Assembly (NCBI GenBank): GCA_965229645.1
Contig: OZ245893.1
Location: 770,529-834,528 of the forward strand
Source: Alphaproteobacteria bacterium
GTDB taxonomy: Bacteria; Pseudomonadota; Alphaproteobacteria; UBA7985
DNA length: 64,000 bases
Direction: 5' to 3'
Shown here: positions 7,903 through 60,197 of the stretch, one piece after another
How the letters are laid out: each line of letters opens with the position of its first letter
How positions within the stretch are numbered: position 1 is the stretch's first letter
Position numbers and translations under genes: made by a program
The notes under the pieces: model-generated
Database searches by the model: none
Told to the model about the DNA's origin: nothing
What the model saw: only the letters and a program-made list of their open reading frames with translations

Positions 7903-7984
7903 TTAATTATACCAACGCAAAGATACACTGATTCATTGACCAACCTGCGTCCAAGGACCAAACCTGAGGAGTGATGCCCCCACC

Positions 7985-8100
7985 AGTGTTCATCCTGCGC
8001 ACTGCGAAGCGAAGTCGCAGGATCCAGCACTCATCGGTTTCATGAAGTACAGACGGCATGAACCTTATACCAACGACTAAAAAAGTTGACACTTTTGTGG
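7985..8100. repeat. Junction with fragments of both repeat families (195-bp palindromic family fragment at ~7993-8040; MITE 5' end at 8067-8100)
   Basis: GCGAAGCGAAGTCGCAGGATCCAGCAC matches the inter-core segment of the tandem arrays at 44757-44810. ATACCAACGACTAAAAAAGTTGACACTTTTGTGGCCC matches the MITE 5' end. Confidence 0.5.
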
Positions 8101-37501: not shown

Positions 37502-39175
37502 ATGATCTCGCTTGTGATCTTCAATGCCCGCGTCCTAACCATGGCGCGGGACACCCCCGTGGCGCAGGCGGTGGCGATTGCGGGCGACCGTATCGCCGCC
37601 GTCGGCAGCACCGCGGACATGCGGGCGCTCGCGACCCCAGGGACGCGCCAGATCGACGCGGGCGGGCGCACGGTCTTGCCTGGGTTCATCGACAGCCATG
37701 TGCATCTGTTCCAGGGTTCGGCAGAACTGGACTTCCTGCCCGTCGGCGGCCTCAGCAATTTGACCCATGTGGTACCCAAGGTGCAAGCCTATGTCCTTGA
37801 TCGGCCCGACGAGCCGCTGGTGCTCGGCGTCGGCGCGTTCTACGATCTGTTTTTGGGGACCGACGCCGACCCGCGCCACCTCCTGGATCGGATCCTGCCC
37901 GACCGCCCCTTCGCCCTGCTGGCGGCGGATCTCCATACCCTGTGGGCCAATACCCGCGCGCTCGATCGTGCGGGGCTGCTGCACGGGGCGGACATGCCCG
38001 AGGGCTCCACCGTGGTCATGGGCGCCGACGGCTGCGCCACGGGCACCCTGCTCGAAACCGGGGCCTTCGGCCCCGTCTTGGCGCTGTCGCGCACAGGCGG
38101 GCGCGATATGCTCGGCTACGTAACGGGCAAGGACCCCGACCCGCCCGCCACCGCCGCTGAGCGCGCGGCAGACAAGGACATGCTGGTCAAGGGCCTCGGG
38201 CATGTTGCCCAGCACGGCATCACGACGCTGCACAATATGGACGGCAACTTCTACCAGTTGGAATTGCTCAGCGAACTGGAAGCCCAAGGCCGCTTGACGG
38301 CGCGGGTGCAAGTCCCGTTTCACCTCAAGAACTTCGATCCCCTCGACCGCCTGGAGGAGGCCGCCGCCATGCACGCCCAATACCGGGGCGCCAAAGTTTG
38401 GTCGGGCCGAGTCAAGATGTTCATGGACGGGGTCATGGAAAGCCGCACCGCGCTCAAGTCCAAAGCCTATCCCGACGCGCCGACCCGCCAGGGCGAGGCC
38501 CTGTTCGCGCCCGATCACTTCAACGAAGCCTGCCGCCGCGCCGACGCGCTGGGCCTGCAAATCAGCGTCCATGCCGTCGGCGATCTCGCGGTCACGCGCG
38601 TGCTCGACGGCTACGAAGCCGCCCGCACCGCCAACGGCCCGCGCGACGCGCGCCATCGCGTTGAGCACATCGAACTGATCACCGACGCAGATCTGGTACG
38701 GATGCGGCGCTTAGACGTGGTCGCCTCCATGCAGCCGCGCCACGCCGCCTTCGCAGGGTTCTTCGAGCCCCCGCAGCCGAACACGATCTTGTTCGACCAC
38801 GAATGCGCGCGCGCCTACGCCTGGCAAACGATTCGGGAACGGGGCATCACGCTGGCCTTCTCAACCGACTGGCCCGTCGTGCCCGTCCATGTGTTGGCGA
38901 ACATCCAAAGCGCCGTCGCCCCCTTGGACTTGGGGCCTGGATGGCCCGATCAGCGCCAATCGCTCATGGATACCTTGCGCAGCTACACGGCCATGAACGC
39001 CTGGCTCGGCTTTCAGGAAGGCCACACGGGCCAGATTCGGCAGGGCTTGGCGGCGGACCTGGTGGTCTTGGACGGTTCGATTGAGGACACGGCCCCGACG
39101 CAGATCGGCGATCTCGGCGTTGCGTTGACCTTGTGCGATGGTCGGGTGACTTATGATGGGGGTCGGGTGACTTGA
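37502..39175 (+). CDS. Metal-dependent amidohydrolase (Amidohydro_3-like family)
   Basis: GFIDSHVHLF metal-binding start of the barrel. 557 aa. The last ~130 codons are duplicated at 44297-44697. Confidence 0.7.
   Translation: MISLVIFNARVLTMARDTPVAQAVAIAGDRIAAVGSTADMRALATPGTRQIDAGGRTVLPGFIDSHVHLFQGSAELDFLPVGGLSNLTHVVPKVQAYVLDRPDEPLVLGVGAFYDLFLGTDADPRHLLDRILPDRPFALLAADLHTLWANTRALDRAGLLHGADMPEGSTVVMGADGCATGTLLETGAFGPVLALSRTGGRDMLGYVTGKDPDPPATAAERAADKDMLVKGLGHVAQHGITTLHNMDGNFYQLELLSELEAQGRLTARVQVPFHLKNFDPLDRLEEAAAMHAQYRGAKVWSGRVKMFMDGVMESRTALKSKAYPDAPTRQGEALFAPDHFNEACRRADALGLQISVHAVGDLAVTRVLDGYEAARTANGPRDARHRVEHIELITDADLVRMRRLDVVASMQPRHAAFAGFFEPPQPNTILFDHECARAYAWQTIRERGITLAFSTDWPVVPVHVLANIQSAVAPLDLGPGWPDQRQSLMDTLRSYTAMNAWLGFQEGHTGQIRQGLAADLVVLDGSIEDTAPTQIGDLGVALTLCDGRVTYDGGRVT
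38773..39162 (+). repeat. Left copy of a ~390-bp imperfect direct repeat (3' end of the amidohydrolase gene); att-like boundary of the integrase islet
   Basis: About 97% identical to 44297..44687 over the whole length. Identity ends at 39162, followed by a 12-bp local duplication GTCGGGTGACTT (39141-39152 and 39163-39174). Confidence 0.7.
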
Positions 39176-39256
39176 TCTGATATGCGCGGCTGCGTTGATT
39201 TTGACGACGGCGGCTGCTGAAGGTCCAAGCAAGGTTGGGTGAACATTTCATGCTGA

Positions 39257-39469
39257 ATGCTGCGACTGTTCACAGGATGGCGTTTGGCTAGAAGACTGAA
39301 GTCACCCGAAGATACGAGACTCCTTAGATTTCCGCCCTCCGCGCGAGAACTCAACTCTATGGAAAACGTCTGGCCGAATCCACAAGCCAACAACCGCTCG
39401 GCAACCGTTTTCGAACGTTGCGATGACATTCTCCAAAGCGTGCACGTCATGGAGCTTCTCGGCAAATGA
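39257..39469 (+). pseudogene. Remnant of an IS630/Tc1-family transposase C-terminus
   Basis: Translation FPPSARELNSMENVWPNPQANNRSATVFERCDDIL matches the conserved LPPYSP(E/D)LNPIENVW...N...F C-terminal block of IS630 transposases. No catalytic upstream part is present. Confidence 0.5.
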
Positions 39470-39606
39470 CCTGGAGCGCATAGAATCAATAGCCGCGCGT
39501 AGATGAGCAACGGTCGTCTGATTTTTGCACTGGAGTTGCGCACAAGGTGGGTCGCGCATCGACTTCTCGTGCAAGGGAGCGAACACCTACAAAATGGAGT
39601 TCCCCA

Positions 39607-40506
39607 ATGTCAGAATTCACTGAACAAATTACAACCTATCTCACCCATTGTGAAAGATCGCGCAGTCTAAGCCCCCACTCCCTTAGGGCCTATGCGCAAG
39701 ACTTGTTTGATTTTCTCTCCTTCAGAGCTGTGCACGACAAAGAAGATGCAGTAAAACCAGAAACCCTTATCGATTACGTATATCACTTAAGACATGATCG
39801 TAATCTTAAACCAGCTACGGTGCGCAGAAGGCTGACTTGTGTTCGCGCGATGTTGCTTTGGACTTATCAAGACAACTCAGCGCTTTGTTCCAGAATTCGA
39901 GAACAAGACCTTGAACTGCGAGTTCCAAAAACCCTACCCAAGCCCATAGAGCGGCAAGACATACGGCATATTCTGCAAATTGGCGAAACAGTTTTATCCA
40001 AGTCAACCTGGAAACAAACTGCTCTGCTCATACGTCTCATTGTCGCAACAGGACTCAGGATCAGCGAAATTCTCAACATCAAACTCAAAGATGTTAGCAC
40101 CGACGGCAGAACAATCCGCGTGATGGGTAAAGGGAGCCGTGAGCGCACGGTTTACGTGGTCAATATCGATGTTCTCCAAGAGTTTACTGAAATGCTCTGC
40201 GGTAGGCAGAACCACAATCCAAATGATCACGTGTTTCAGAATGCCTGGGGTCGGCCTCTAAGTGCAAGCGCATTTCGAAAACGCCTAAAGGACTTGACAT
40301 CCAGGCCAAATGTGCCGGCGCATCTATCTCCACATAAGCTTCGACACTCCGCGGCAACCCTGCTGATTGAGGAAGGGGTGGATATTCGCTTGATTCAAAG
40401 GTTGCTTGGTCATGCCAGTATCGCGACTACGGAACTCTATACCAAGGTTACCGACACATCTCTCCGCGCAGCGCTTGAGTGTGCGGACACAATTTCAACG
40501 ATTTAG
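39607..40506 (+). CDS. Tyrosine-type site-specific recombinase/integrase (XerC/D-like fold)
   Basis: Start MSEFTEQ. Catalytic residues in GLRISEIL, HKLRHSAAT and LLGHASIATTELYTKV. Intermediate GC. Confidence 0.8.
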   Translation: MSEFTEQITTYLTHCERSRSLSPHSLRAYAQDLFDFLSFRAVHDKEDAVKPETLIDYVYHLRHDRNLKPATVRRRLTCVRAMLLWTYQDNSALCSRIREQDLELRVPKTLPKPIERQDIRHILQIGETVLSKSTWKQTALLIRLIVATGLRISEILNIKLKDVSTDGRTIRVMGKGSRERTVYVVNIDVLQEFTEMLCGRQNHNPNDHVFQNAWGRPLSASAFRKRLKDLTSRPNVPAHLSPHKLRHSAATLLIEEGVDIRLIQRLLGHASIATTELYTKVTDTSLRAALECADTISTI

Positions 40507-40531
40507 AGAGGAGTGGCGATAACAAAGAATT

Positions 40532-41644
40532 ATGGGCAGAGATGACCAGCTAATAGTGATTTCAAAACACTATGACAATTTCAAAAATTACGCCCTGGCT
40601 AGTGACGCCTACAAGTATATCGCTTTTTCTGGAAGTCCTATTCTAACAGAAAAAATTTGGGTTAGGGGAGCTGAAACGGGCAGAAGCAGTAAACAATTTA
40701 TGTCTTCATTGACGATAGGAGACATCGGCATTTACGATAAAGGCAGATTCCAGATATTCTTTAACCAACCGTCGATGTTATCTCAGCAATGGAGTTACTT
40801 GCCGAATGTTACTGTTCTAGCGCCCAACTTACACTCATATCAGCAAGCCGCAGACAAATTTAACTTCTACAGCTGGATAGTCAAGTATGGAAATTCAGCG
40901 ATTAAAGAAGTAATGCTAAATCAAATTTCACAATTTAACATCCATTTCAGAGTAGGTAGACCAAAGCCAAATGACAGAAAAATAAGCTCATCTCAAAAGG
41001 GAGAAGGGGGAAGTTCCTATCAATCAAGTGCTCCTAAAGACTGTGATAGTGTATATAGAACATCAAGTTTCTGCAACTACGAGGTTGGTCTAATAATGCA
41101 ATCAGTAGCATATCAAGATGGATGTATTCATGGACCTGTAGGTAGAGTTTGGAGTGGACATGAAGAAAACCCCTACAGGAATAGCTGCATATATTATGAC
41201 CCGAATGTAGAGAATATGATTGATTTAGATAGAATGTATCAGCTTCAAACCGATGTATTCTGCCTCTTAAGAGAAATGAAGTTCACTGGCGCATTCAGCA
41301 CTGATTGGCTTTATACAACAAACGGAGGAAAATTCTATTTTCTCGAAGTCAATCCAAGATTTTCAAGCGACGTGTGCTTGTTTGATCAAAGCTACAAAAA
41401 CAATGGAATTCAAAATCAAATTGCGGTTAATCATCAAATGTCGACATCTGAGAGTTTCCTAGGGAGGCGTATTGAGATAGTGAGTTTTTGTGAGTTTGGT
41501 GGCAGTGAAGAGTTTCGAGCATACTTTCCGCTGGAGAGGACACATGAAAACCATAATTTTGCACTTAATATGTCTCGGAGAGTTCCAGAGTACCTCCTGG
41601 ATTTTCATACAAACCATATGCTTCTCCATTTATCTGAAACTTGA
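40532..41644 (+). CDS. ATP-grasp-like protein, low GC (function unknown)
   Basis: 370 aa. GKFYFLEVNPRFSSD resembles the ATP-grasp E-x-N motif region. Strongly AT-rich. Starts 26 bp after the integrase stop. Confidence 0.45.
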   Translation: MGRDDQLIVISKHYDNFKNYALASDAYKYIAFSGSPILTEKIWVRGAETGRSSKQFMSSLTIGDIGIYDKGRFQIFFNQPSMLSQQWSYLPNVTVLAPNLHSYQQAADKFNFYSWIVKYGNSAIKEVMLNQISQFNIHFRVGRPKPNDRKISSSQKGEGGSSYQSSAPKDCDSVYRTSSFCNYEVGLIMQSVAYQDGCIHGPVGRVWSGHEENPYRNSCIYYDPNVENMIDLDRMYQLQTDVFCLLREMKFTGAFSTDWLYTTNGGKFYFLEVNPRFSSDVCLFDQSYKNNGIQNQIAVNHQMSTSESFLGRRIEIVSFCEFGGSEEFRAYFPLERTHENHNFALNMSRRVPEYLLDFHTNHMLLHLSET

Positions 41645-42998
41645 TTTGTGAAGTTTCTATCAATTTCATCTCTCTGTTTCTCAAATTATGTATTTCTATC
41701 TGCAGTTGAAGTTCTTCAGCCTGATCTTTCAATTTCTCTAACGTTGAATAGTTAAGTGAATCAACAACTTCTGTTGTCATTTCGCTTAGCTGATCAAGGA
41801 GTTCATTAATGTCTAAGTGAATTGTCGACGCTCCTAACACAGAAGAGGCAACCCAAGCCCAGCGAAGTGCATATGCCAACTTCATGGCTCTTCTGAAGAC
41901 TATGCTTCCTTCATATATTTCAGAACTTTGAATCGATTGATATTTTATACAGCTATCAATTGCACTAATTATTTGTGCACACTTTTTCCAGTCTTCAGGG
42001 GAGGCTAAATTGGCGGAGCCAAACCGTACGTGTAAAATGACCTCTCCCCAATACAGTGCTTCCAATTCAGCGCCTGCACGTTTTGCCCTGGAAAAAATCA
42101 CCCCAGGGATTTTTCCCTCTTGATTGCCACTTATGCTTAAGGAGTCTTTTAATAGAGGAGCGAGAATTTGTTTAGCTTTAACATTATCTCGAAGTGACTT
42201 TATAATATTGATTGATTGATCTAATCGATATAGCAGGTCTTGCGATTGCAGCCTATCCAATAAATCCTTAATCCAAGCAAAATTGATTTCGGATTGCTCA
42301 AGTTCAGAAATTCTAATTGACAAGTTTATTTTTTGGAAAAAATCAAGATTTTCGGAGTTTATAAAATTTTGCAAAACTTCGATTAATTTTTCTTTGGAGT
42401 GTATATTTTGGGAGTCATTTGGTTCATTCAAACTGGAAATCTCAAATGATGAAACGCTTCCTAAAAAATCTCTTGGTCCAATTATATAGGACAAATTTTC
42501 CAATGAGATCTCCAGTGACTCGATCACCGTATTGTCCAAAATCAATGCAGTTGCAGATACAGACCTGAGGTCAAGTTTGTTAAATCTGCAACTCCTAAAC
42601 AAACTATCCTCGAGACCGTTTGATGTCATATCTATGTCATTAAACTTACATCTCTCATATATAGTTTCGCGCATATTGCTATGTTTGTAACGAATCCGAC
42701 CCTCACCTAAGAAGTCACAGTCGCTAAATCGTGCTCCAAAAAAGCTGCAGTCTCTTATTTCTGTATCATCAGTAAAAATGAAATCGCAACTCTCAAATAT
42801 TGAGAAAACAAAGTTGCAGTTAACAAATTTACAATCTATAAACTTGCATTTTATGTATGTAGTAAGGCGTGCCTCAATACGCCGGAAATCGATATTCGGG
42901 AAAGTATATCCGACAAATGATTGATAGGATACTGTTCTGCGAAATAGAGATTCCTTCCAAACCAGATCAGTTTCAGGCACGCTCGTTAGATCATTCAT
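41565..42998 (-). CDS. Pentapeptide-repeat protein with a C-terminal coiled-coil-rich domain of unknown function, low GC
   Basis: N-terminal runs of CKFIDCKFVNCNFVFSIFESCDFIFTDD...CSFFGARFSDCDF...CKFNDIDM...CRFNKLDL (A(D/N)LXX-type pentapeptide repeats). 477 aa. Convergent with the ATP-grasp gene; their 3' ends overlap by 80 bp. Confidence 0.6.
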   Translation of the reverse strand: MNDLTSVPETDLVWKESLFRRTVSYQSFVGYTFPNIDFRRIEARLTTYIKCKFIDCKFVNCNFVFSIFESCDFIFTDDTEIRDCSFFGARFSDCDFLGEGRIRYKHSNMRETIYERCKFNDIDMTSNGLEDSLFRSCRFNKLDLRSVSATALILDNTVIESLEISLENLSYIIGPRDFLGSVSSFEISSLNEPNDSQNIHSKEKLIEVLQNFINSENLDFFQKINLSIRISELEQSEINFAWIKDLLDRLQSQDLLYRLDQSINIIKSLRDNVKAKQILAPLLKDSLSISGNQEGKIPGVIFSRAKRAGAELEALYWGEVILHVRFGSANLASPEDWKKCAQIISAIDSCIKYQSIQSSEIYEGSIVFRRAMKLAYALRWAWVASSVLGASTIHLDINELLDQLSEMTTEVVDSLNYSTLEKLKDQAEELQLQIEIHNLRNREMKLIETSQIKFQINGEAYGLYENPGGTLELSETY

Positions 42999-43242
42999 AA
43001 TTCTTTGTTATCGCTAAATTTCGTTTCGGTTAGCATGGCTGGGTCGACTTTGCAACCTACGAGTGATGACTGATTTTCGCAGTGTACCACCTCTGTTCCT
43101 GAAACGCACAATAGCGCTTCACTGGGGAAGGTCAACATATCCAGTTTAACTGCAAATTTAGAGACCGTGTCCAAGTACAGATCATACTCACGGCTAAGGA
43201 GAGGAGTTCGACTTTGCGGGGTGGAGCCTTCCGTTTTTTTGT

Positions 43243-44010
43243 CTGGTGTTCCGTGATGGATGCTGCGACTGCGCGCAGCATGACATCGGAAGGGGTGTCG
43301 GGGTTTCGGAACACCGTCATCCAGCGCGTTGCGAAGCGATGTCGCAGGGTCCAGCGCCCGCCGTTTTCAGCCTGGGTGGAACTTGGTGACACAGAGCAGA
43401 ACAGGCATCGCGCGGTCGGCACCGTCTGCTCTTGTGGCCTGTGTTCCGTGATGGATGCTGCGACTGCGCGCAGCATGACATCGGAAGGGGTGTCGGGGTT
43501 TCCGAACACCGTCGTCCAGCGCTTCGCGACGCGACTTCGCGGATCCAGCGCCTGCCGTTTTCAGCCTGGGCGGAACTTGGTGACATAAAGCAGAACGGGC
43601 AAGGCGCGGTCGGCACAGTCTGCTCTTGTGGTCGGTGTTCCGTGATCGATGCTGCGACTGCGCGCAGCATGACATCGGAAGGGGTGTCGGGGTTTCCGAA
43701 CACCGTCGTCCAGCGCGTCGCGACGCGATGTCGCGGATCCGGCGCCTGCCGTTTTCAGCCTGGGTTTAACTTGGTGACATAGAGCGGAGCAGGCAAGGCG
43801 CGGTCGGCACCGTCTGCTCTTGTGGCCTGTGTTCCGTGATGGATGCTGCGACTGCGCGCAGCATGACCTCGGAAGGGGTGTCGGGTTTCGGAACACCGTT
43901 ATCCAGCGCGTCGCGACGCGACGTCGCAGGATCCAACGCCTGCCGTTTTCAGCTTGGACAGAACGTGGTGACATATAGCCGAACGGGCAAGGCGCGGTCG
44001 GCACCATCCG
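43243..44010. repeat. Tandem array 1 of a ~192-198-bp high-GC nested-palindrome repeat (4 units)
   Basis: Units start at 43243, 43441, 43633 and 43829. Core is GTGTTCCG-TGATGG-ATGCTGCG-actgcg-CGCAGCAT-...-CGGAACAC, followed by a conserved segment with the CGTCGCGACG / GCGACGTCGC palindromes. Confidence 0.85.
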
Positions 44011-44254
44011 TTCGTAGGGTCAGCGTGCTGGGGTGGATGTGGCGGGGCCAAGCAGCGCTTTGTTATTTGACTTCGACCCTGGGATGGAACAGCAGGGCGA
44101 TGGGAATATCCAACGCCGACGGAGCATTCGATGGACCGACGCGAGCAGGCCGCCTGCGTTCGCCAGTACTTTGAGTATTTGACCGCTTCCAATTAAGCTG
44201 CGATCCTCGACTTGTTCGATCCCGATGGGGATGTCGATTCTCCCTATCTGGACA
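44003..44254 (+). repeat. Copy 1 of a ~255-bp segmental duplication (array terminus plus decayed 5' part of a small SnoaL-like ORF); copy 2 at 47343..47605
   Basis: Collinear near-identity with 47343-47605. The small ORF is interrupted here by TAA (..FEYLTASN*) but is intact in copy 2. Confidence 0.7.
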
Positions 44255-44296
44255 GGATGCGCGCTTGCGAATTCTTCGCCAAACTCGCCGAGGCCT

Positions 44297-44697
44297 CGCA
44301 GCCTAACACGATCCTGTTCGACCACGAATGCGCGCGCGCCTACGCCTGGCAAACGATCCGGGAACGGGGCATCACGCTGGCCTTCTCAACGGACTGGCCC
44401 GTCGTGCCCGTCCATGTACTGGCGAACATCCAAAGCGCGGTCGCCCCCTTGGACTTGGGGCCTGGATGGCCCGATCAGCGCCAATCGCTCATGGATACCT
44501 TGCGCAGCTACACGGCCATGAACGCCTGGCTCGGCTTTCAGGAAGCCCACACGGGCCAGATTCGGCAGGGCTTGGCGGCGGACCTGGTGGTCTTGGACGG
44601 TTCGATTGAAGACACGGCCCCGACGCAGATCGGCGATCTCGGCGTTGCGTTGACCTTATGCGATGGTCAGGTGACTTATGATGGGGGAAGGTTTTGA
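44297..44697 (+). pseudogene. Displaced duplicate of the amidohydrolase 3' end (right att-like repeat), fused in frame to a SnoaL-like leader fragment (chimeric ORF 44212..44697)
   Basis: ..QPNTILFDHECARAYAWQTIRERGITLAFSTDWPVVPVHVLANIQSAVAPLDLGPGWPDQRQSL.. is near-identical to residues encoded at 38773-39175. It lacks the N-terminal ~420 aa. Confidence 0.7.
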
Positions 44698-44756
44698 TAC
44701 TCACGAGAACATGAGTTAGGCTACCCACACCCTCGACGTCCGCCCCCTGCCCGACG

Positions 44757-45690
44757 TCATCCAGCGCGGAGCGAAGCGAAGTCGCAGGATCCATCACCCG
44801 CTGTTTCCCCTGAAACGGAACGCGGCCACAAGGAGAGAAGCACGCAACCCAAGAGTCGGTCCCGTCCGCTTTCGCGACAGACGTTCAGTGATGGATGCTG
44901 CGACTGCGCGCAGCATGACATCGGAAGGGGGTGTTGGGGTTTCGGAACACCGTAATCCAGCGCTTCGCGACGCGACGTCGCAGGATCCAGCGCCTGCCGT
45001 TTTGAGCCTGGGCGGAACGTGGTGACACAGAGCAGAACAGGCATCGCGCGGTCGGCACCGTCTGCTCTTGTGGTCGGTGTTCCGTGATGGATGCTGCGAC
45101 TGCGCGCAGCATGACGTCGGAAGGGGTGTCGGGGTTTTGGAACACCGTCATTCAGCGCGTCGCGACGCGACGTTGCAGGGTCCATGGCCTGCTGTTTCGT
45201 CCTAGGCTGAACGTGGTGACATAGAGCGGAACGGGCAAGGAGTGGTCGGTACCGTTTGCTGTTGTGGTCGGTGTTCCGTGATGGATGCTGCGACTGCGCG
45301 CAGCATGACACCAGGAGGGGCGTCGGGGTTTCGGAACACCGTAATCCAGCGCTTCGCGACGCGACGTCGCAGGATCCAGCGCCTGCTGTTTTGAGCCTGG
45401 GCGGAACGTGGTGACAAAGAGCGGAACAGGCAAGGCGCGGTCGGTACCGTCCGTTCTTGTGGCCTGTGTTCCGTGATGGATGCTGCGACTGCGCGCAGCA
45501 TGACATCGGAAGGGGGTGTTGGGACTCTGAACCAGCGTCATCCGGCGCGGAGCGAAGCGAAGTCGCAGGGTCCATCACCTGCTGTTTTCAGCCTGGGCGG
45601 AACTTGGTGACATAAAGCGGAACGGGCAAGGCGCGGTCGGCACTGTCCGCGCTTGTGGCCAGTGGTCCGTGATGGATGCTGCGATTGTTT
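44757..45690. repeat. Tandem array 2 of the ~195-bp nested-palindrome repeat (~5 units, last truncated)
   Basis: Same core GTGATGGATGCTGCGACTGCGCGCAGCATGAC recurring at ~44888, 45084, 45279, 45473 and 45668. Confidence 0.85.
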
Positions 45691-45797
45691 TGTGATGCGG
45701 ACGTTCCTTGCGCCTTTGGGGATTGGAGCCCGCTTGCAAACCGCAGCCGTGGCCCTACACCAGATCCAACAAGAATTTTTCGCAATAGGGTTTGTCC

Positions 45798-46166
45798 CTA
45801 TCGAGCCATCCAGCCTCTATCGGCGGCCAGAGCCCGCAACCGCTTTGCCCTTATTGTGACTTGATTATTGGTTAGGCCCGAAAAATCAATAAGAAAGTGG
45901 GCAGGATTTTCAGGGACAGGATCCGCCTCAAATGGCAAATCAAGACGACGATATTCCTCCTCACTAAGACTCTGAACGCCGATACTATCGAAACCACGCG
46001 CGAGAAAATTAGCCAAACTGCCTTGAGCAGAAACCAAGGCTTCATGATCTACCGACAAGCATGATTGGTTTTTGAGCATAGGTTTGAACGCAAGGCTCAT
46101 AACCCTTCCATCTTTTTCATGATCGGCGCAAATATTCCTCATAAGACACTTCTTCCCAGCATTCAT
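45798..46166 (-). CDS. Hypothetical protein (122 aa), lower GC, second gene of a two-gene cassette
   Basis: ATGA overlap with the upstream ORF at 46163-46166. No recognisable motif. Confidence 0.4.
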   Translation of the reverse strand: MNAGKKCLMRNICADHEKDGRVMSLAFKPMLKNQSCLSVDHEALVSAQGSLANFLARGFDSIGVQSLSEEEYRRLDLPFEADPVPENPAHFLIDFSGLTNNQVTIRAKRLRALAADRGWMAR

Positions 46167-46654
46167 CGTGAGTTAAAGCGTAAAGGTGAACTACGAATTT
46201 TCTCAACTGAGTGCTTGAGCAGTTGAGCATCTGGATTTTTCAATGATGTTTCTGTTTCATGATTTGAAGATAAGTCGATTCCACACATATCAACATCTCC
46301 AGAATCTAAAAATTCAATCGAGAAATCCCATCCATTTTCCTGAAATTCAAAATGAATATCCCCGTCTGGAGTCGAGGCCACACACAAATTTTGTGGCAGA
46401 GATCGCGCTGTGTAGAGGAAGAACAAACTCTTACTAAGAGTTAACTTCCTCGGCGCTTTTCCAACGCCATTGTGCCAACCCTTGGGCAAGTTACCATAGC
46501 TTTGAATTTTTTTTGTTGGCTCACTCAAAGGATGTTGGGGATCTTGTGATCTTAGCTCTTCAACGACCCACGGATCCATTCTGTTTCGTTGCGCTTGTGT
46601 CGCACGCGAAACGCTTTGTGGGTCATATGTGCTTTGATGGACTTGGGCGTTCAT
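46163..46654 (-). CDS. Hypothetical protein (~163 aa), lower GC, first gene of a two-gene cassette
   Basis: Start taken at MNAQVHQ. The ORF-track N-extension runs into the LysR-fragment scar and is rejected. No recognisable motif. Confidence 0.4.
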   Translation of the reverse strand: MNAQVHQSTYDPQSVSRATQAQRNRMDPWVVEELRSQDPQHPLSEPTKKIQSYGNLPKGWHNGVGKAPRKLTLSKSLFFLYTARSLPQNLCVASTPDGDIHFEFQENGWDFSIEFLDSGDVDMCGIDLSSNHETETSLKNPDAQLLKHSVEKIRSSPLRFNSR

Positions 46655-46702
46655 TGAACTTGTATGGCATATGGGAAGCAAGCGGTCAATTCGGGGGACA
46701 AA

Positions 46703-46758
46703 AGACGTACCTCCACGCCCTTCTCCAGCAAACTTGTGCCGACGCAGGGCGCATCTGA
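46703..46758 (+). pseudogene. Fragment duplicating the last ~17 codons of the LysR gene at 50929..50981
   Basis: ACGTACCTCCACGCCCTTCTCCAGCAAACTTGTGCCGA(C/T)GCA(G/A)GG is shared; it encodes ..TYLHALLQQTCADA.. in both places. Confidence 0.6.
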
Positions 46759-46825
46759 TTGGATGGAGCCATTGCCGCGAGCCGCGGACCACGCTCAAGC
46801 GCCCCGCGTTCAGCTTGACATCTTG

Positions 46826-47345
46826 GGGGGTGTCGGGACTCTAAAACACCGTCATCCAGCGCGTCGCGACGCGACGTCGCGGGATTCAGCGTCTGCCGTT
46901 TTCAGCCTGGGTTGAACTTGGTGACGTAGAGCGGAGCAGGCAAGGCACGGTCGGCGCCGTCCGTTCTTGTGGCCTGTGTTCCGTGATGGATGCTGCGACT
47001 GCGCGCAGCATGACATCGGAAGGAACGTCGGGTTTCGGAACACCGTCGTCCAGCGCGTCGCGACGCGACGTCGCAGGGTCCAGCGCCTGCCGTTTTCAGC
47101 CTGGGCGGAACGTGCTGACATAGAGCCGAACGGGCAAGGCATGGTCGGCGCCGTCCGTTCTTGTGGCCTGTGTTCCGTGATGGATGCTGCGACTGCGCGC
47201 AGCATGACGTCGGGAGGGGTGTCGGGGTTTCGGAACACCGTCGTCTGGCGCGTTGCGACGCGACGTCGCAGGGTCCATCGGCTGCTGTTTCGTCCTGGGC
47301 GGAACGTGGTGACATCGAGCGGAACGGGCAACGCACGCTCAGCAC
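46826..47345. repeat. Tandem array 3 of the ~195-bp nested-palindrome repeat (~2.5 units)
   Basis: Cores at ~46981 and 47175. Array ends in the same terminal segment as array 1 and runs into segmental-duplication copy 2. Confidence 0.85.
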
Positions 47346-47471
47346 CATCCGTTCGTAGGGTCAGCGTGCTGGGGTGGATGTGGCGGGGCCAAGCAGCGCT
47401 TTCTTATTTGACTTCGACCCTTGGATGGAACAGCAGAGCGATGGGACTATCCAACGCCGAAGGAGCAGTCG

Positions 47472-47621
47472 ATGAACCAACGCGATCATGCCGTCTGCGT
47501 TCGCCACTACTTTGAGTATTTGACCGCCTCCAACTACGCTACGATCCTCGACTTGTTCGATCCCGATGGGGAGGTCGATTCTCCCTATCTGGGCAGGATG
47601 CGCGCGCTTACCTTGCCATGA
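47472..47621 (+). CDS. Small SnoaL/NTF2-like fragment protein (49 aa), translationally coupled to the FAD monooxygenase
   Basis: MNQRDHAVCVRHYFEYLTASNYATILDLFDPDGEVDSPYLGRMRALTLP. Stop overlaps the monooxygenase ATG (ATGA at 47618-47621). A degenerate copy is at 44108-44175. Confidence 0.35.
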   Translation: MNQRDHAVCVRHYFEYLTASNYATILDLFDPDGEVDSPYLGRMRALTLP

Positions 47622-48865
47622 CCCTCCTCATCTGCGGGGCGGGAATCGCTGGCTTGACCATGGGACTGACGCTGCATCAGATCGAGGTGCCGTTTCAAAT
47701 CTTTGAAACCGTGTCGCGGCCCAAACCCTTAGGCGTTGGGATCAACTTGCAGCCGCCCGCCGTCCGAGAACTCTATGCACTGGGACTGGAGGAAGCTCTG
47801 GATCGGATCGGCGTGCAGACCCGCGACTATGGGTTTTATACGCGCACCGGCCTTGAGATATGGACCGAACCGCGCGGGCGTCGGGCTGGATACAAATGGC
47901 CGCAATATTCCGTGCATCGAGGGCACTTGCAGATGGCGCTGCTCGCCGCCTTGCGTGCGCGTTGTGGCGAAGACTGCCTTAGGTTCGGCGCGAAAGTGCT
48001 GGGTTACGAAAACACCAGGGACGGCGTCAGGTTGCGCTACGAGATGGGTGGGACGACCTGGTGGGCGACGGGTCCTATGGTGGTCGGTGCTGACGGCATT
48101 CATTCGGCGATACGGGCGCGCATGTATCCGAACGAAGGGCCGCCCGTTTGGGGCGGCGCGCTCATGTGGCGGGGGACGTCGCAGGCCAAGCCGTTTTTGA
48201 GTGGCGCATCGATGATCTTAGCGGGCAACGACAGGCAGCGCTTTGTTTCCTATCCCATTTCCAAACCGGACCCCGAAACCGGCCTCTCGACCCTCAACTG
48301 GATTGCGGAAACAACTCCCAACGCCTCGACGCCCATCGATCGAGGGGATTGGAACCGCCGCGTCGAGTCTTCTCGATTTGCGTCGGATTTTGCCGATTGG
48401 GATTTTGGCTGGATCGACGTTCCAGGCTTGATCGGGTCGGCCGCCGAGGTTTTTGAGTACCCCATGGTGGACCGCGAACCGGTCGAGAGCTGGACCGACG
48501 GTAACGTTACGCTGATCGGCGACGCGGCCCATGCGACCTATCCCGTTGGCTCAAGCGGCGCGAGCCAGGCTATTGTCGATGCGCGGATCCTCGGCGCTGA
48601 GATCAGGACCCATGGCCCTGGGGCCGACGCCGCGCACGCCTATGAGGCCCGCGTGCGCCCCATGGCCAACAAAGTAACCCTCGCCAATCGCGGCACCGGA
48701 GGGCCAGATGCGATCATGCAGCTTGCCGAAGACCGATGCGCAGGCGATTTCAGCCGCCTCGACGCCGCCCTGCCCACGGCGGAGCGCGCGGCCCATGCGG
48801 CTGCCTTCAAGAAAATCGCGGGGCTCAGCGTTGAGGAGACAAATCGCACGAATGGCCTATTGTGA
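47618..48865 (+). CDS. FAD-dependent aromatic-ring monooxygenase (salicylate/3-hydroxybenzoate hydroxylase-like)
   Basis: N-terminal LICGAGIAGLTMGL, a GADGIHSAIR block and a DAAH-containing C-terminal motif (GDAAHATYP). Confidence 0.75.
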   Translation: MTLLICGAGIAGLTMGLTLHQIEVPFQIFETVSRPKPLGVGINLQPPAVRELYALGLEEALDRIGVQTRDYGFYTRTGLEIWTEPRGRRAGYKWPQYSVHRGHLQMALLAALRARCGEDCLRFGAKVLGYENTRDGVRLRYEMGGTTWWATGPMVVGADGIHSAIRARMYPNEGPPVWGGALMWRGTSQAKPFLSGASMILAGNDRQRFVSYPISKPDPETGLSTLNWIAETTPNASTPIDRGDWNRRVESSRFASDFADWDFGWIDVPGLIGSAAEVFEYPMVDREPVESWTDGNVTLIGDAAHATYPVGSSGASQAIVDARILGAEIRTHGPGADAAHAYEARVRPMANKVTLANRGTGGPDAIMQLAEDRCAGDFSRLDAALPTAERAAHAAAFKKIAGLSVEETNRTNGLL

Positions 48866-59955: not shown

Positions 59956-60000
59956 ATGAAAGATCAGCGCTGCGACGGTTCCGTGATGGATGCTGCGACT
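59956..60000. repeat. Solitary fragment of the nested-palindrome repeat core
   Basis: GGTTCCGTGATGGATGCTGCGACTGCGCGCAGCATGAC matches the array cores. The flanking array-type sequence is absent. Confidence 0.7.
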
Positions 60001-60197
60001 GCGCGCAGCATGACTTCTCGTTGGGGGTCTTCGTTCTTGGGGCTGATGCGTCTTTGCGGGTGGCAAAATCGCAAACCACCCCGTCGGGCGTCACCTCTAC
60101 CCCTTCTGGGAGAGGAAAATTGGAATGCAGGAGGCTGCTGATATTAATGTGATTGCCAGTGATTTTGTTCGCGCCTGGTCTCGTCTTAGAAGGGCCT

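Follow-up and report, generated by a model that had tools for sequence, protein, structure and literature searches.

A tyrosine recombinase, an orphan ATP-grasp ligase gene and a pentapeptide-repeat gene as a candidate programmed-inversion module

We describe a rare three-gene module in a 64,000-nt stretch of DNA, hereafter the window, from the genome of an alphaproteobacterium of the GTDB lineage UBA7985 (assembly GCA_965229645.1, contig OZ245893.1, positions 770,529 to 834,528 of the forward strand; positions below are those of the window). The module consists of a gene for an Xer-like tyrosine recombinase followed by two convergent open reading frames (ORFs), ORF-A, which encodes a putative ATP-grasp ligase, and ORF-B, which encodes a pentapeptide-repeat protein. 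We consider it likely that the three form one unit, in which programmed inversion switches the recombinase operon between two unrelated genes. If true, this would be a new class of programmed inversion, a whole-gene toggle between unrelated cytoplasmic proteins, whereas known inversions turn a promoter round or exchange versions of a single protein. No description of the trio was found in the searchable literature. A preliminary description of the same DNA, made from its letters alone, had reported a convergent, 3'-overlapping pair of genes with low guanine-plus-cytosine (GC) content directly after an integrase gene, and this arrangement is borne out, with an overlap of 80 nt (Table 1). It had also treated the pair as cargo of an integrase-borne islet, which is most likely wrong. 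The 'integrase' of the window is most likely the invertase of the A-B segment, because it is a conserved third partner of the two genes, because the segment is bounded by conserved inverted sites of recombination type, and because loci exist with the segment either way round with respect to the recombinase.

The A-B segment is enclosed by a perfect 19-nt inverted repeat, GCGATAACAAAGAATTATG, the arms of which end in the ATG codons of the two genes. In the window, 25 nt separate the recombinase stop codon from the ATG of ORF-A; the left arm falls in this interval and contains the Shine-Dalgarno-like motif AAGA. Both arms hold a common 15-bp core (ATAAC-TNNG-AATTAT) that flanks the segment in every related locus. 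The core was found in 20/20 related loci and is present exactly twice, once per strand, in each complete one; in the window, the pattern ATAAYNNNRAATTAT has exactly two occurrences in 64 kb, compared with 0.00 expected by chance. It has stayed constant although the proteins have diverged to as little as 15-35% identity, values so low that neutral DNA would be saturated. Arms within one locus are identical past the core, for up to 46 nt. In five loci (L006, L012, L015, L020 and L021) the identity reaches into the first 2-6 codons, and A and B share their starting residues, for example MAEIGD in L020, MTIE in L012 and MSSLI in L021. This identity within loci implies concerted evolution, as is expected of recombining sites. 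Written as ATAA-N7-TTAT, the core is similar to the centre of a dif-type Xer site (ATAA-TGTATA-TTAT). The centre of the core is asymmetric, which would give the site a direction, and two such sites in inverted position would yield inversion.

Short repeats are common in AT-rich DNA, and one could suppose that the repeats are coincidental or that the ORFs are not genes. We give this supposition practically no weight, and on the sequence evidence it is already refuted: the two cores for which chance predicts 0.00 stand at both start codons, they recur in all 20 related loci, and both proteins are conserved over their full length. Judged by the full-length homologues of each that are kept in 12 lineages, ORF-A and ORF-B are real genes.

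The loci examined were the window, the group of contigs L001-L005, L006, L007, L008, L012, L015/L016, L017, L018, L019/L020, L021 and L022. Wherever an ORF-A relative lay on a readable contig, an ORF-B homologue was present as well (12/12 lineages), and the convergent arrangement, with an overlap of 17-101 nt, was kept in all 12, including the very distant L021 and L022, in which ORF-A identity is 18% and 15%, respectively. The suggestion in the preliminary description of an uncharacterised module that co-occurs elsewhere has thus held up. Orthologues of the recombinase, 33-53% identical, adjoin the segment in 7/7 lineages with enough flanking sequence, and the gap between recombinase and segment is 5-25 nt in all seven. 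The trio is the only set of genes common to all loci, and the neighbours vary from one to the next: rpsF-rplI-dnaB at L008, a thiamine pyrophosphate enzyme and an aromatic lyase at L015, glnE and two-component genes at L020, and a chemoreceptor gene at L021.

Both orientations of the segment were observed between lineages. The gene next to the recombinase is A in four lineages (window, L001 group, L008 and L022) and B in three (L015/L016, L019/L020 and L021), and the junction is equally tight in either case (5-25 nt). The locus thus shows the marks of an inversion system, namely inverted repeats that bound a segment, an adjacent site-specific recombinase and both orientations between lineages. 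Contig ends provide a further line of evidence. Four Logan contigs from separate runs (L006, L007, L017 and L018) cover nothing but the segment and terminate exactly at the outer repeat edge on either side; L005 ends at the repeat edge on the B side only, its A-side end lying approximately 8 nt into the recombinase-side flank. The repeats of these five contigs measure 15-28 nt, which is below k-1 = 30 for the Logan assembly, presumably built with k = 31. Contigs that break at repeats shorter than k-1 imply two outer contexts for the same inner sequence, and hence mixed orientations in the samples, from which inversion would appear to be active within populations. The repeat of L012, at 30 nt, is uninformative on this argument.

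Several observations weigh against the inversion reading. Activity within populations is deduced indirectly, from contig break points. Each lineage that was sampled repeatedly shows one consensus orientation (L001-L004, L015/L016 and L019/L020), orientation follows clade in the two best-sampled clades, and the orientations alone may be compatible with a single old inversion per clade. At 15 bp, the core is short for a full tyrosine-recombinase site. In every locus, the segment borders on its far side on a non-coding spacer of 185-270 bp, and a shared-k-mer search of these spacers found nothing common to three or more loci. Finally, promoter scans of the region gave no more matches than scans of shuffled sequence.

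An alternative, which we regard as quite unlikely, is that the recombinase is the ordinary integrase of a mobile islet, that A and B are jointly acting cargo, either a defence or anti-defence pair or a peptide or amide ligase partnered by a DNA mimic, and that their identical 5' sequences are a shared operator or 5' untranslated region. The locus is foreign in composition, as the preliminary description had recognised (GC 0.39 in ORF-A and 0.37 in ORF-B, compared with 0.60 in the flanks), it has a weak IS630-like remnant alongside, and a candidate defence pair, PDC-M32 in the PADLOC collection, lies 3 kb away. ORF-B has a weak match to the Hailong effector HalA, in its pentapeptide part only. 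The locus also lies within a direct duplication of the 3' end of an amidohydrolase gene (425 bp, 94% identical), which brackets the islet together with one repeat array; comparable direct repeats were found in neither L001 nor L008. No common direct-repeat attachment (att) sites were found, L001 and L008 having been examined for them and the remaining loci scanned for inverted repeats only. In principle, the conserved core might act as an operator that binds a protein, but an operator leaves unexplained both the occurrence of two orientations with the same 5-25 nt recombinase junction and the breaking of assemblies exactly at the repeats. Moreover, A and B have no PADLOC or PHROG match, the contexts elsewhere are housekeeping or metabolic genes, and the GC content of the recombinase gene is always unlike that of the segment.

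This compositional step bears on another alternative, in which the A-B segment is a mobile cassette with terminal inverted repeats, inserted or exchanged beside a resident recombinase by a natural counterpart of recombinase-mediated cassette exchange, and the two orientations are independent insertions. The segment lies 10-18 GC points (10-30 points at third codon positions, GC3) under its own recombinase gene at every locus compared (window, L001, L008, L015 and L020). The identity matrices of the recombinase and of A and B are also incongruent: L001 and L008 have the closest A and B proteins (48% and 41%) and recombinases just 43% identical, and between L001 and L015 the values are 53% for the recombinase, 31% for A and 24% for B. 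Together, the GC step and the identities that do not track each other suggest partly separate histories of segment and recombinase gene, and the presence of the same core in all lineages implies that the sites would be cross-compatible. The incongruence could, however, stem from unequal rates and concerns seven taxa only. One recombinase with two inverted sites gives inversion by default, and no free or relocated cassettes were seen, every flanked contig having a recombinase beside the segment. We consider cassette exchange very unlikely as the explanation of the locus; it supplements the inversion model and is not an exclusive alternative to it.

In the inversion mechanism that we propose, the Xer-like tyrosine recombinase would bind the two inverted 15-bp cores, which are 2.46 kb apart, and flip the segment between them, which comprises only the two convergent, 3'-overlapping genes. 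Each core stands immediately 5' of a start codon, with a Shine-Dalgarno-like GGA, and the proximal core is 5-25 nt from the recombinase stop codon. Inversion would then change the gene that shares a transcript, and perhaps translational coupling, with the recombinase, and the distal gene, which may be silent or only driven differently, would face the non-conserved spacer of approximately 200 bp. In the window, the 80-nt overlap has no intergenic terminator, so that the ORF-A and ORF-B transcripts must be antisense to each other there. As the genes converge and overlap, no terminator fits between them; the stronger transcript would continue in antisense into the opposite gene, and the obligatory overlap would sharpen the contrast between A-high/B-low and B-high/A-low cells. 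We infer in this way the promoter logic and the mutual exclusivity of the A and B states.

The closest organisational parallels are the G segment of phage Mu and the C segment of phage P1, in which the gene for the recombinase (Gin or Cin) lies just outside an invertible segment of approximately 3 kb with short inverted repeats; there too, two convergent alternative coding sets are present, and the expressed one faces a fixed outside transcription unit. Unlike the Xer-like tyrosine recombinase found here, Gin and Cin belong to the serine invertases and depend on Fis and an enhancer. Mu swaps homologous C-terminal parts of a tail fibre behind a constant N-terminal part, whereas the segment described here would swap two complete, unrelated cytoplasmic genes that share only a ribosome-binding site. 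XerC/XerD-dif offers a likeness of a different kind: XerC/XerD is the best-scoring family for the recombinase, and the core, as ATAA-N7-TTAT, is like the inner arms and central region of dif. It differs in that the window has a single recombinase gene, inverted sites 2.5 kb apart and no chromosome-dimer context. A tyrosine recombinase beside its own inverted repeats, with likely population heterogeneity, is shared with FimB/FimE-fimS, the Rci shufflon of R64, RecV of Clostridioides difficile, the hsdS shufflons of Type I restriction systems and the Tsr shufflons of Bacteroides. These systems flip a promoter or recombine one gene family, mostly of surface or specificity proteins; here, whole genes of two families would be involved. 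Pentapeptide-repeat proteins are under-represented among predicted programmed inversions in one survey (PMC9881135).

The inversion reading would imply that selection keeps A and B as alternatives, whatever they do, and would provide a first functional handle on an orphan clade of ATP-grasp ligases and on a protein that joins pentapeptide repeats to a new C-terminal domain. A recombinase of approximately 300 residues with a 15-bp core conserved over very distant lineages might also serve as a genetic tool. For annotation, the locus counsels caution, in that a gene labelled 'integrase' next to AT-rich genes is no proof of a mobile islet with cargo.

Cytoplasmic phase-variable loci tend to be defence-related, and the preliminary description had proposed defence, anti-defence or peptide modification as the role of the pair. 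These proposals found no backing: PADLOC 2.0 models gave no match to the recombinase, A or B at E <=0.1, PHROGs gave none to A or B, the segment has no room for a precursor peptide, and no consistent defence-island context was seen elsewhere. A function of the module in defence or gyrase modulation is speculation. An extended reading, in which the trio is a self-contained, horizontally transferable bistable toggle whose A and B products, the latter of DNA-mimic type, act antagonistically on one target (e.g. by modifying or protecting a DNA-binding enzyme such as gyrase) as bet-hedging against phage or toxins, with mutual exclusivity enforced by the antisense overlap, is in our judgement unlikely. 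Under it, the same core everywhere would permit A-B segments to be exchanged between loci, and such exchange would account for the GC step and the incongruent identities.

The recombinase, whose start at 39607 agrees with the public gene call, matches the Pfam family Phage_integrase (PF00589) at 7e-41 (140 bits, cut-off 27) and has an N-terminal SAM-like domain. It has the catalytic domain with R-K-H-R-H/W-Y that characterises the tyrosine recombinase superfamily. Residues R151, K175, H243, R246, H269 and Y278 are invariant across five aligned orthologues and are assigned by motif as the putative catalytic set. The best-scoring family is XerC/XerD, at 198 and 187 bits; these scores miss the curated NCBIfam equivalog cut-offs of 335 and 330, and membership of either equivalog was rejected. 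An integron integrase was rejected as well (98 bits, cut-off 265), and the 194-bp repeats nearby are a dispersed family and not attC sites.

ORF-A belongs to a small family. A full hidden Markov model (HMM) search with a four-sequence profile, in 1.84 billion representative proteins, retrieved 54 proteins at E <=0.001; this full search was needed, word-index searches having retrieved three relatives of ORF-A and one of ORF-B. The only part of ORF-A that directly matches ATP-grasp models is YFLEVNPRFSS at residues 269-279. Its match to CPSase_L_D2 (E=0.006) is below the cut-off, and its score of 16.6 misses the Pfam gathering threshold of 19.8, but the distant family members L021 and L022 pass the cut-off at 23.6 and 24.1, and ATP-grasp_3 is matched by 15/28 relatives. 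In the 28-sequence alignment, K109, G253, D258, E272, N274 and R276 do not vary, and residues 157-160 preserve a Gly-rich loop, GEGG; by comparison with biotin carboxylase, we read the motifs as marking the invariant residues as probable ATP and Mg ligands. An AlphaFold model built from this alignment reached a predicted local distance difference test (pLDDT) of 84 and a predicted template-modelling score (pTM) of 0.88, whereas a model from only four sequences was unusable (pLDDT 50). ORF-A thus has the fold of the ATP-grasp superfamily together with its conserved Lys, Gly-rich loop and D...E-x-N-x-R motif, and the ATP-grasp-like character noted in the preliminary description is supported by fold and motif residues alike. 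On the invariant residues, the ATP-grasp_3 matches and the quality of the model, ORF-A is a complete and probably active carboxylate-amine ligase of an orphan clade.

The closest known group comprises the PurK, PurT, PylC, BesA, PGM1 and L-amino-acid-ligase ATP-grasp enzymes, from which ORF-A differs in having only 8-13% identity to any solved structure and in lacking a biosynthetic gene context. The preliminary description had named, as the outcome that would count against it, an ordinary RimK- or cyanophycin-type paralogue in a pair that does not co-occur elsewhere; what was found is an orphan clade and a pair that recurs. A housekeeping paralogue of RimK or cyanophycin synthetase was rejected because the closest sequence or fold match lies elsewhere. 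A macrocyclase of graspetides, a class of ribosomally synthesised and post-translationally modified peptides (RiPPs), was likewise rejected: there is no adjacent precursor gene, nor room for one in the segment, and the closest fold is a different one. No relatives of ORF-A were found in plasmids (tblastn with ORF-A and with the C-terminal region of ORF-B), viral contigs or GTDB species representatives.

The pentapeptide repeats of ORF-B span approximately residues 11-171 and number about 30 pentads in three registers. The preliminary description was thus correct in reporting such repeats followed by a C-terminal domain with no known match, and its count of about 12 was too low. Pfam matches are Pentapeptide (PF00805; 21.6 bits, cut-off 20.2) and Pentapeptide_4 (35.6 bits); each of 10/10 ORF-B homologues matches three or four pentapeptide models, and an ORF-B profile matches solved pentapeptide proteins, MfpA, McbG-like proteins and Qnr at 3e-10 to 1e-7. 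The C-terminal region of approximately 300 residues had no match in Pfam or in profile searches. Its description as coiled-coil-rich could not be verified, as only the last 40-60 residues are coiled-coil-like. No transmembrane segment is predicted; the protein is predicted to be soluble, and a membrane protein was rejected on this ground.

The likeness of ORF-B to Qnr, MfpA, McbG, AlbG and HalA is that of the right-handed pentapeptide beta-helix, and ORF-B differs from all of them in its conserved extra C-terminal region. A gyrase protector of the Qnr/MfpA type was rejected, with scores of 16-25 bits against cut-offs of 240-500 (Qnr 23 against 240, MfpA 20 against 360); known members are approximately 180-220 residues long and consist of the beta-helix only, whereas ORF-B has 477 residues and the additional domain. 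HalA was rejected at 41 bits against 250, the match being confined to the repeat region; the membrane segment is lacking, and no gene for a HalB-like nucleotidyltransferase is present in the trio or in a conserved neighbourhood. At L019, the ORF-B homologue is split by an insertion of the IS3 insertion sequence (IS) family (HTH_Tnp_1 and rve), and the recombinase, ORF-A and both cores remain; in its sister contig, L020, ORF-B is intact.

Table 1. Coordinates of the module, of its surroundings in the window and of features on related contigs
Feature	Position	Strand	Remarks
Xer-like tyrosine recombinase gene, 299 aa	39607-40506	+	Pfam, orthologues; probable invertase
Left inverted-repeat arm	40516-40534	+	19 nt, 100% complementary to 42996-43014
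Left arm 15-bp core, ATAACAAAGAATTAT	40519-40533	+	
ORF-A, orphan-clade ATP-grasp carboxylate-amine ligase (probably active), 370 aa	40532-41644	+	
ORF-A/ORF-B convergent 3' overlap	41565-41644		80 nt
ORF-B, predicted pentapeptide-repeat beta-helix with C-terminal region of ~300 aa, 477 aa	41565-42998	-	
Right inverted-repeat arm	42996-43014	-	Directly 5' of ORF-B ATG
Right arm core, ATAACAAAGAATTAT	42997-43011	-	
Far-side spacer, right arm to first 194-bp repeat array	43015-43244		Possible second promoter region for the gene facing there
Sigma-70-like match (one)	43135-43108	-	
Terminator-like hairpin	43216-43234	+	
194-bp repeat arrays	43245-44005, 44755-45700, 46845-47354		
Single repeat copies	near 1108-1243, 7908-8065, 59978-60020		
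Degenerate repeat core	39246-39283		
Short ORF upstream of recombinase	39257-39469	+	Probable IS630-like remnant
Amidohydrolase 3' end and its copy	38749-39175, 44274-44697		
Stretch after array 1 and its copy after array 3	43947-44246, 47288-47587		
Second islet, two genes	45798-46166, 46163-46798	-, -	
Arms reaching into coding regions, L020	6746-6791/9275-9320		
Arms reaching into coding regions, L012	1-30/2601-2630		
Arms reaching into coding regions, L021	7987-8016/10902-10931		
IS3-family insertion in ORF-B homologue, L019	12118-13784		

The part of the window around the module is rearranged. It contains a repeat family of 194-196 bp, which forms three tandem arrays of 2.6-4 copies (85-90% identity) flanking low-GC islets. 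A hairpin, ATGCTGCG-ACTGCG-CGCAGCAT, is found in each unit. The repeat has no Rfam match, Rfam giving nothing anywhere in 38500-48000, and a single unit folds no better than shuffled sequence (z -1.3). Copies also occur in an alphaproteobacterial metagenome-assembled genome (CBDDHH010000004). The repeats were rejected as a part of the module, being absent from all other loci; neither the arrays, nor the amidohydrolase duplication, nor the second islet recurs there. The arrays may be insertion hot spots for foreign DNA.

The second low-GC islet lies between two repeat arrays, and its two genes match the candidate defence pair PDC-M32: PDC-M32B is matched from end to end (1.8e-25) and PDC-M32A over its C-terminal third only (2e-8), for which reason the PDC-M32A-like gene is probably truncated. 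The short ORF upstream of the recombinase weakly resembles the C-terminal portion of a DDE_3 (IS630-type) transposase (E 0.02). The copy of the final 425 bp of the amidohydrolase gene stands 5.5 kb downstream, and a 300-bp stretch after the first array recurs after the third, the two being 90% identical. The pattern suggests an ancient tandem duplication of a unit of gene end, array and spacer that later received the two islets.

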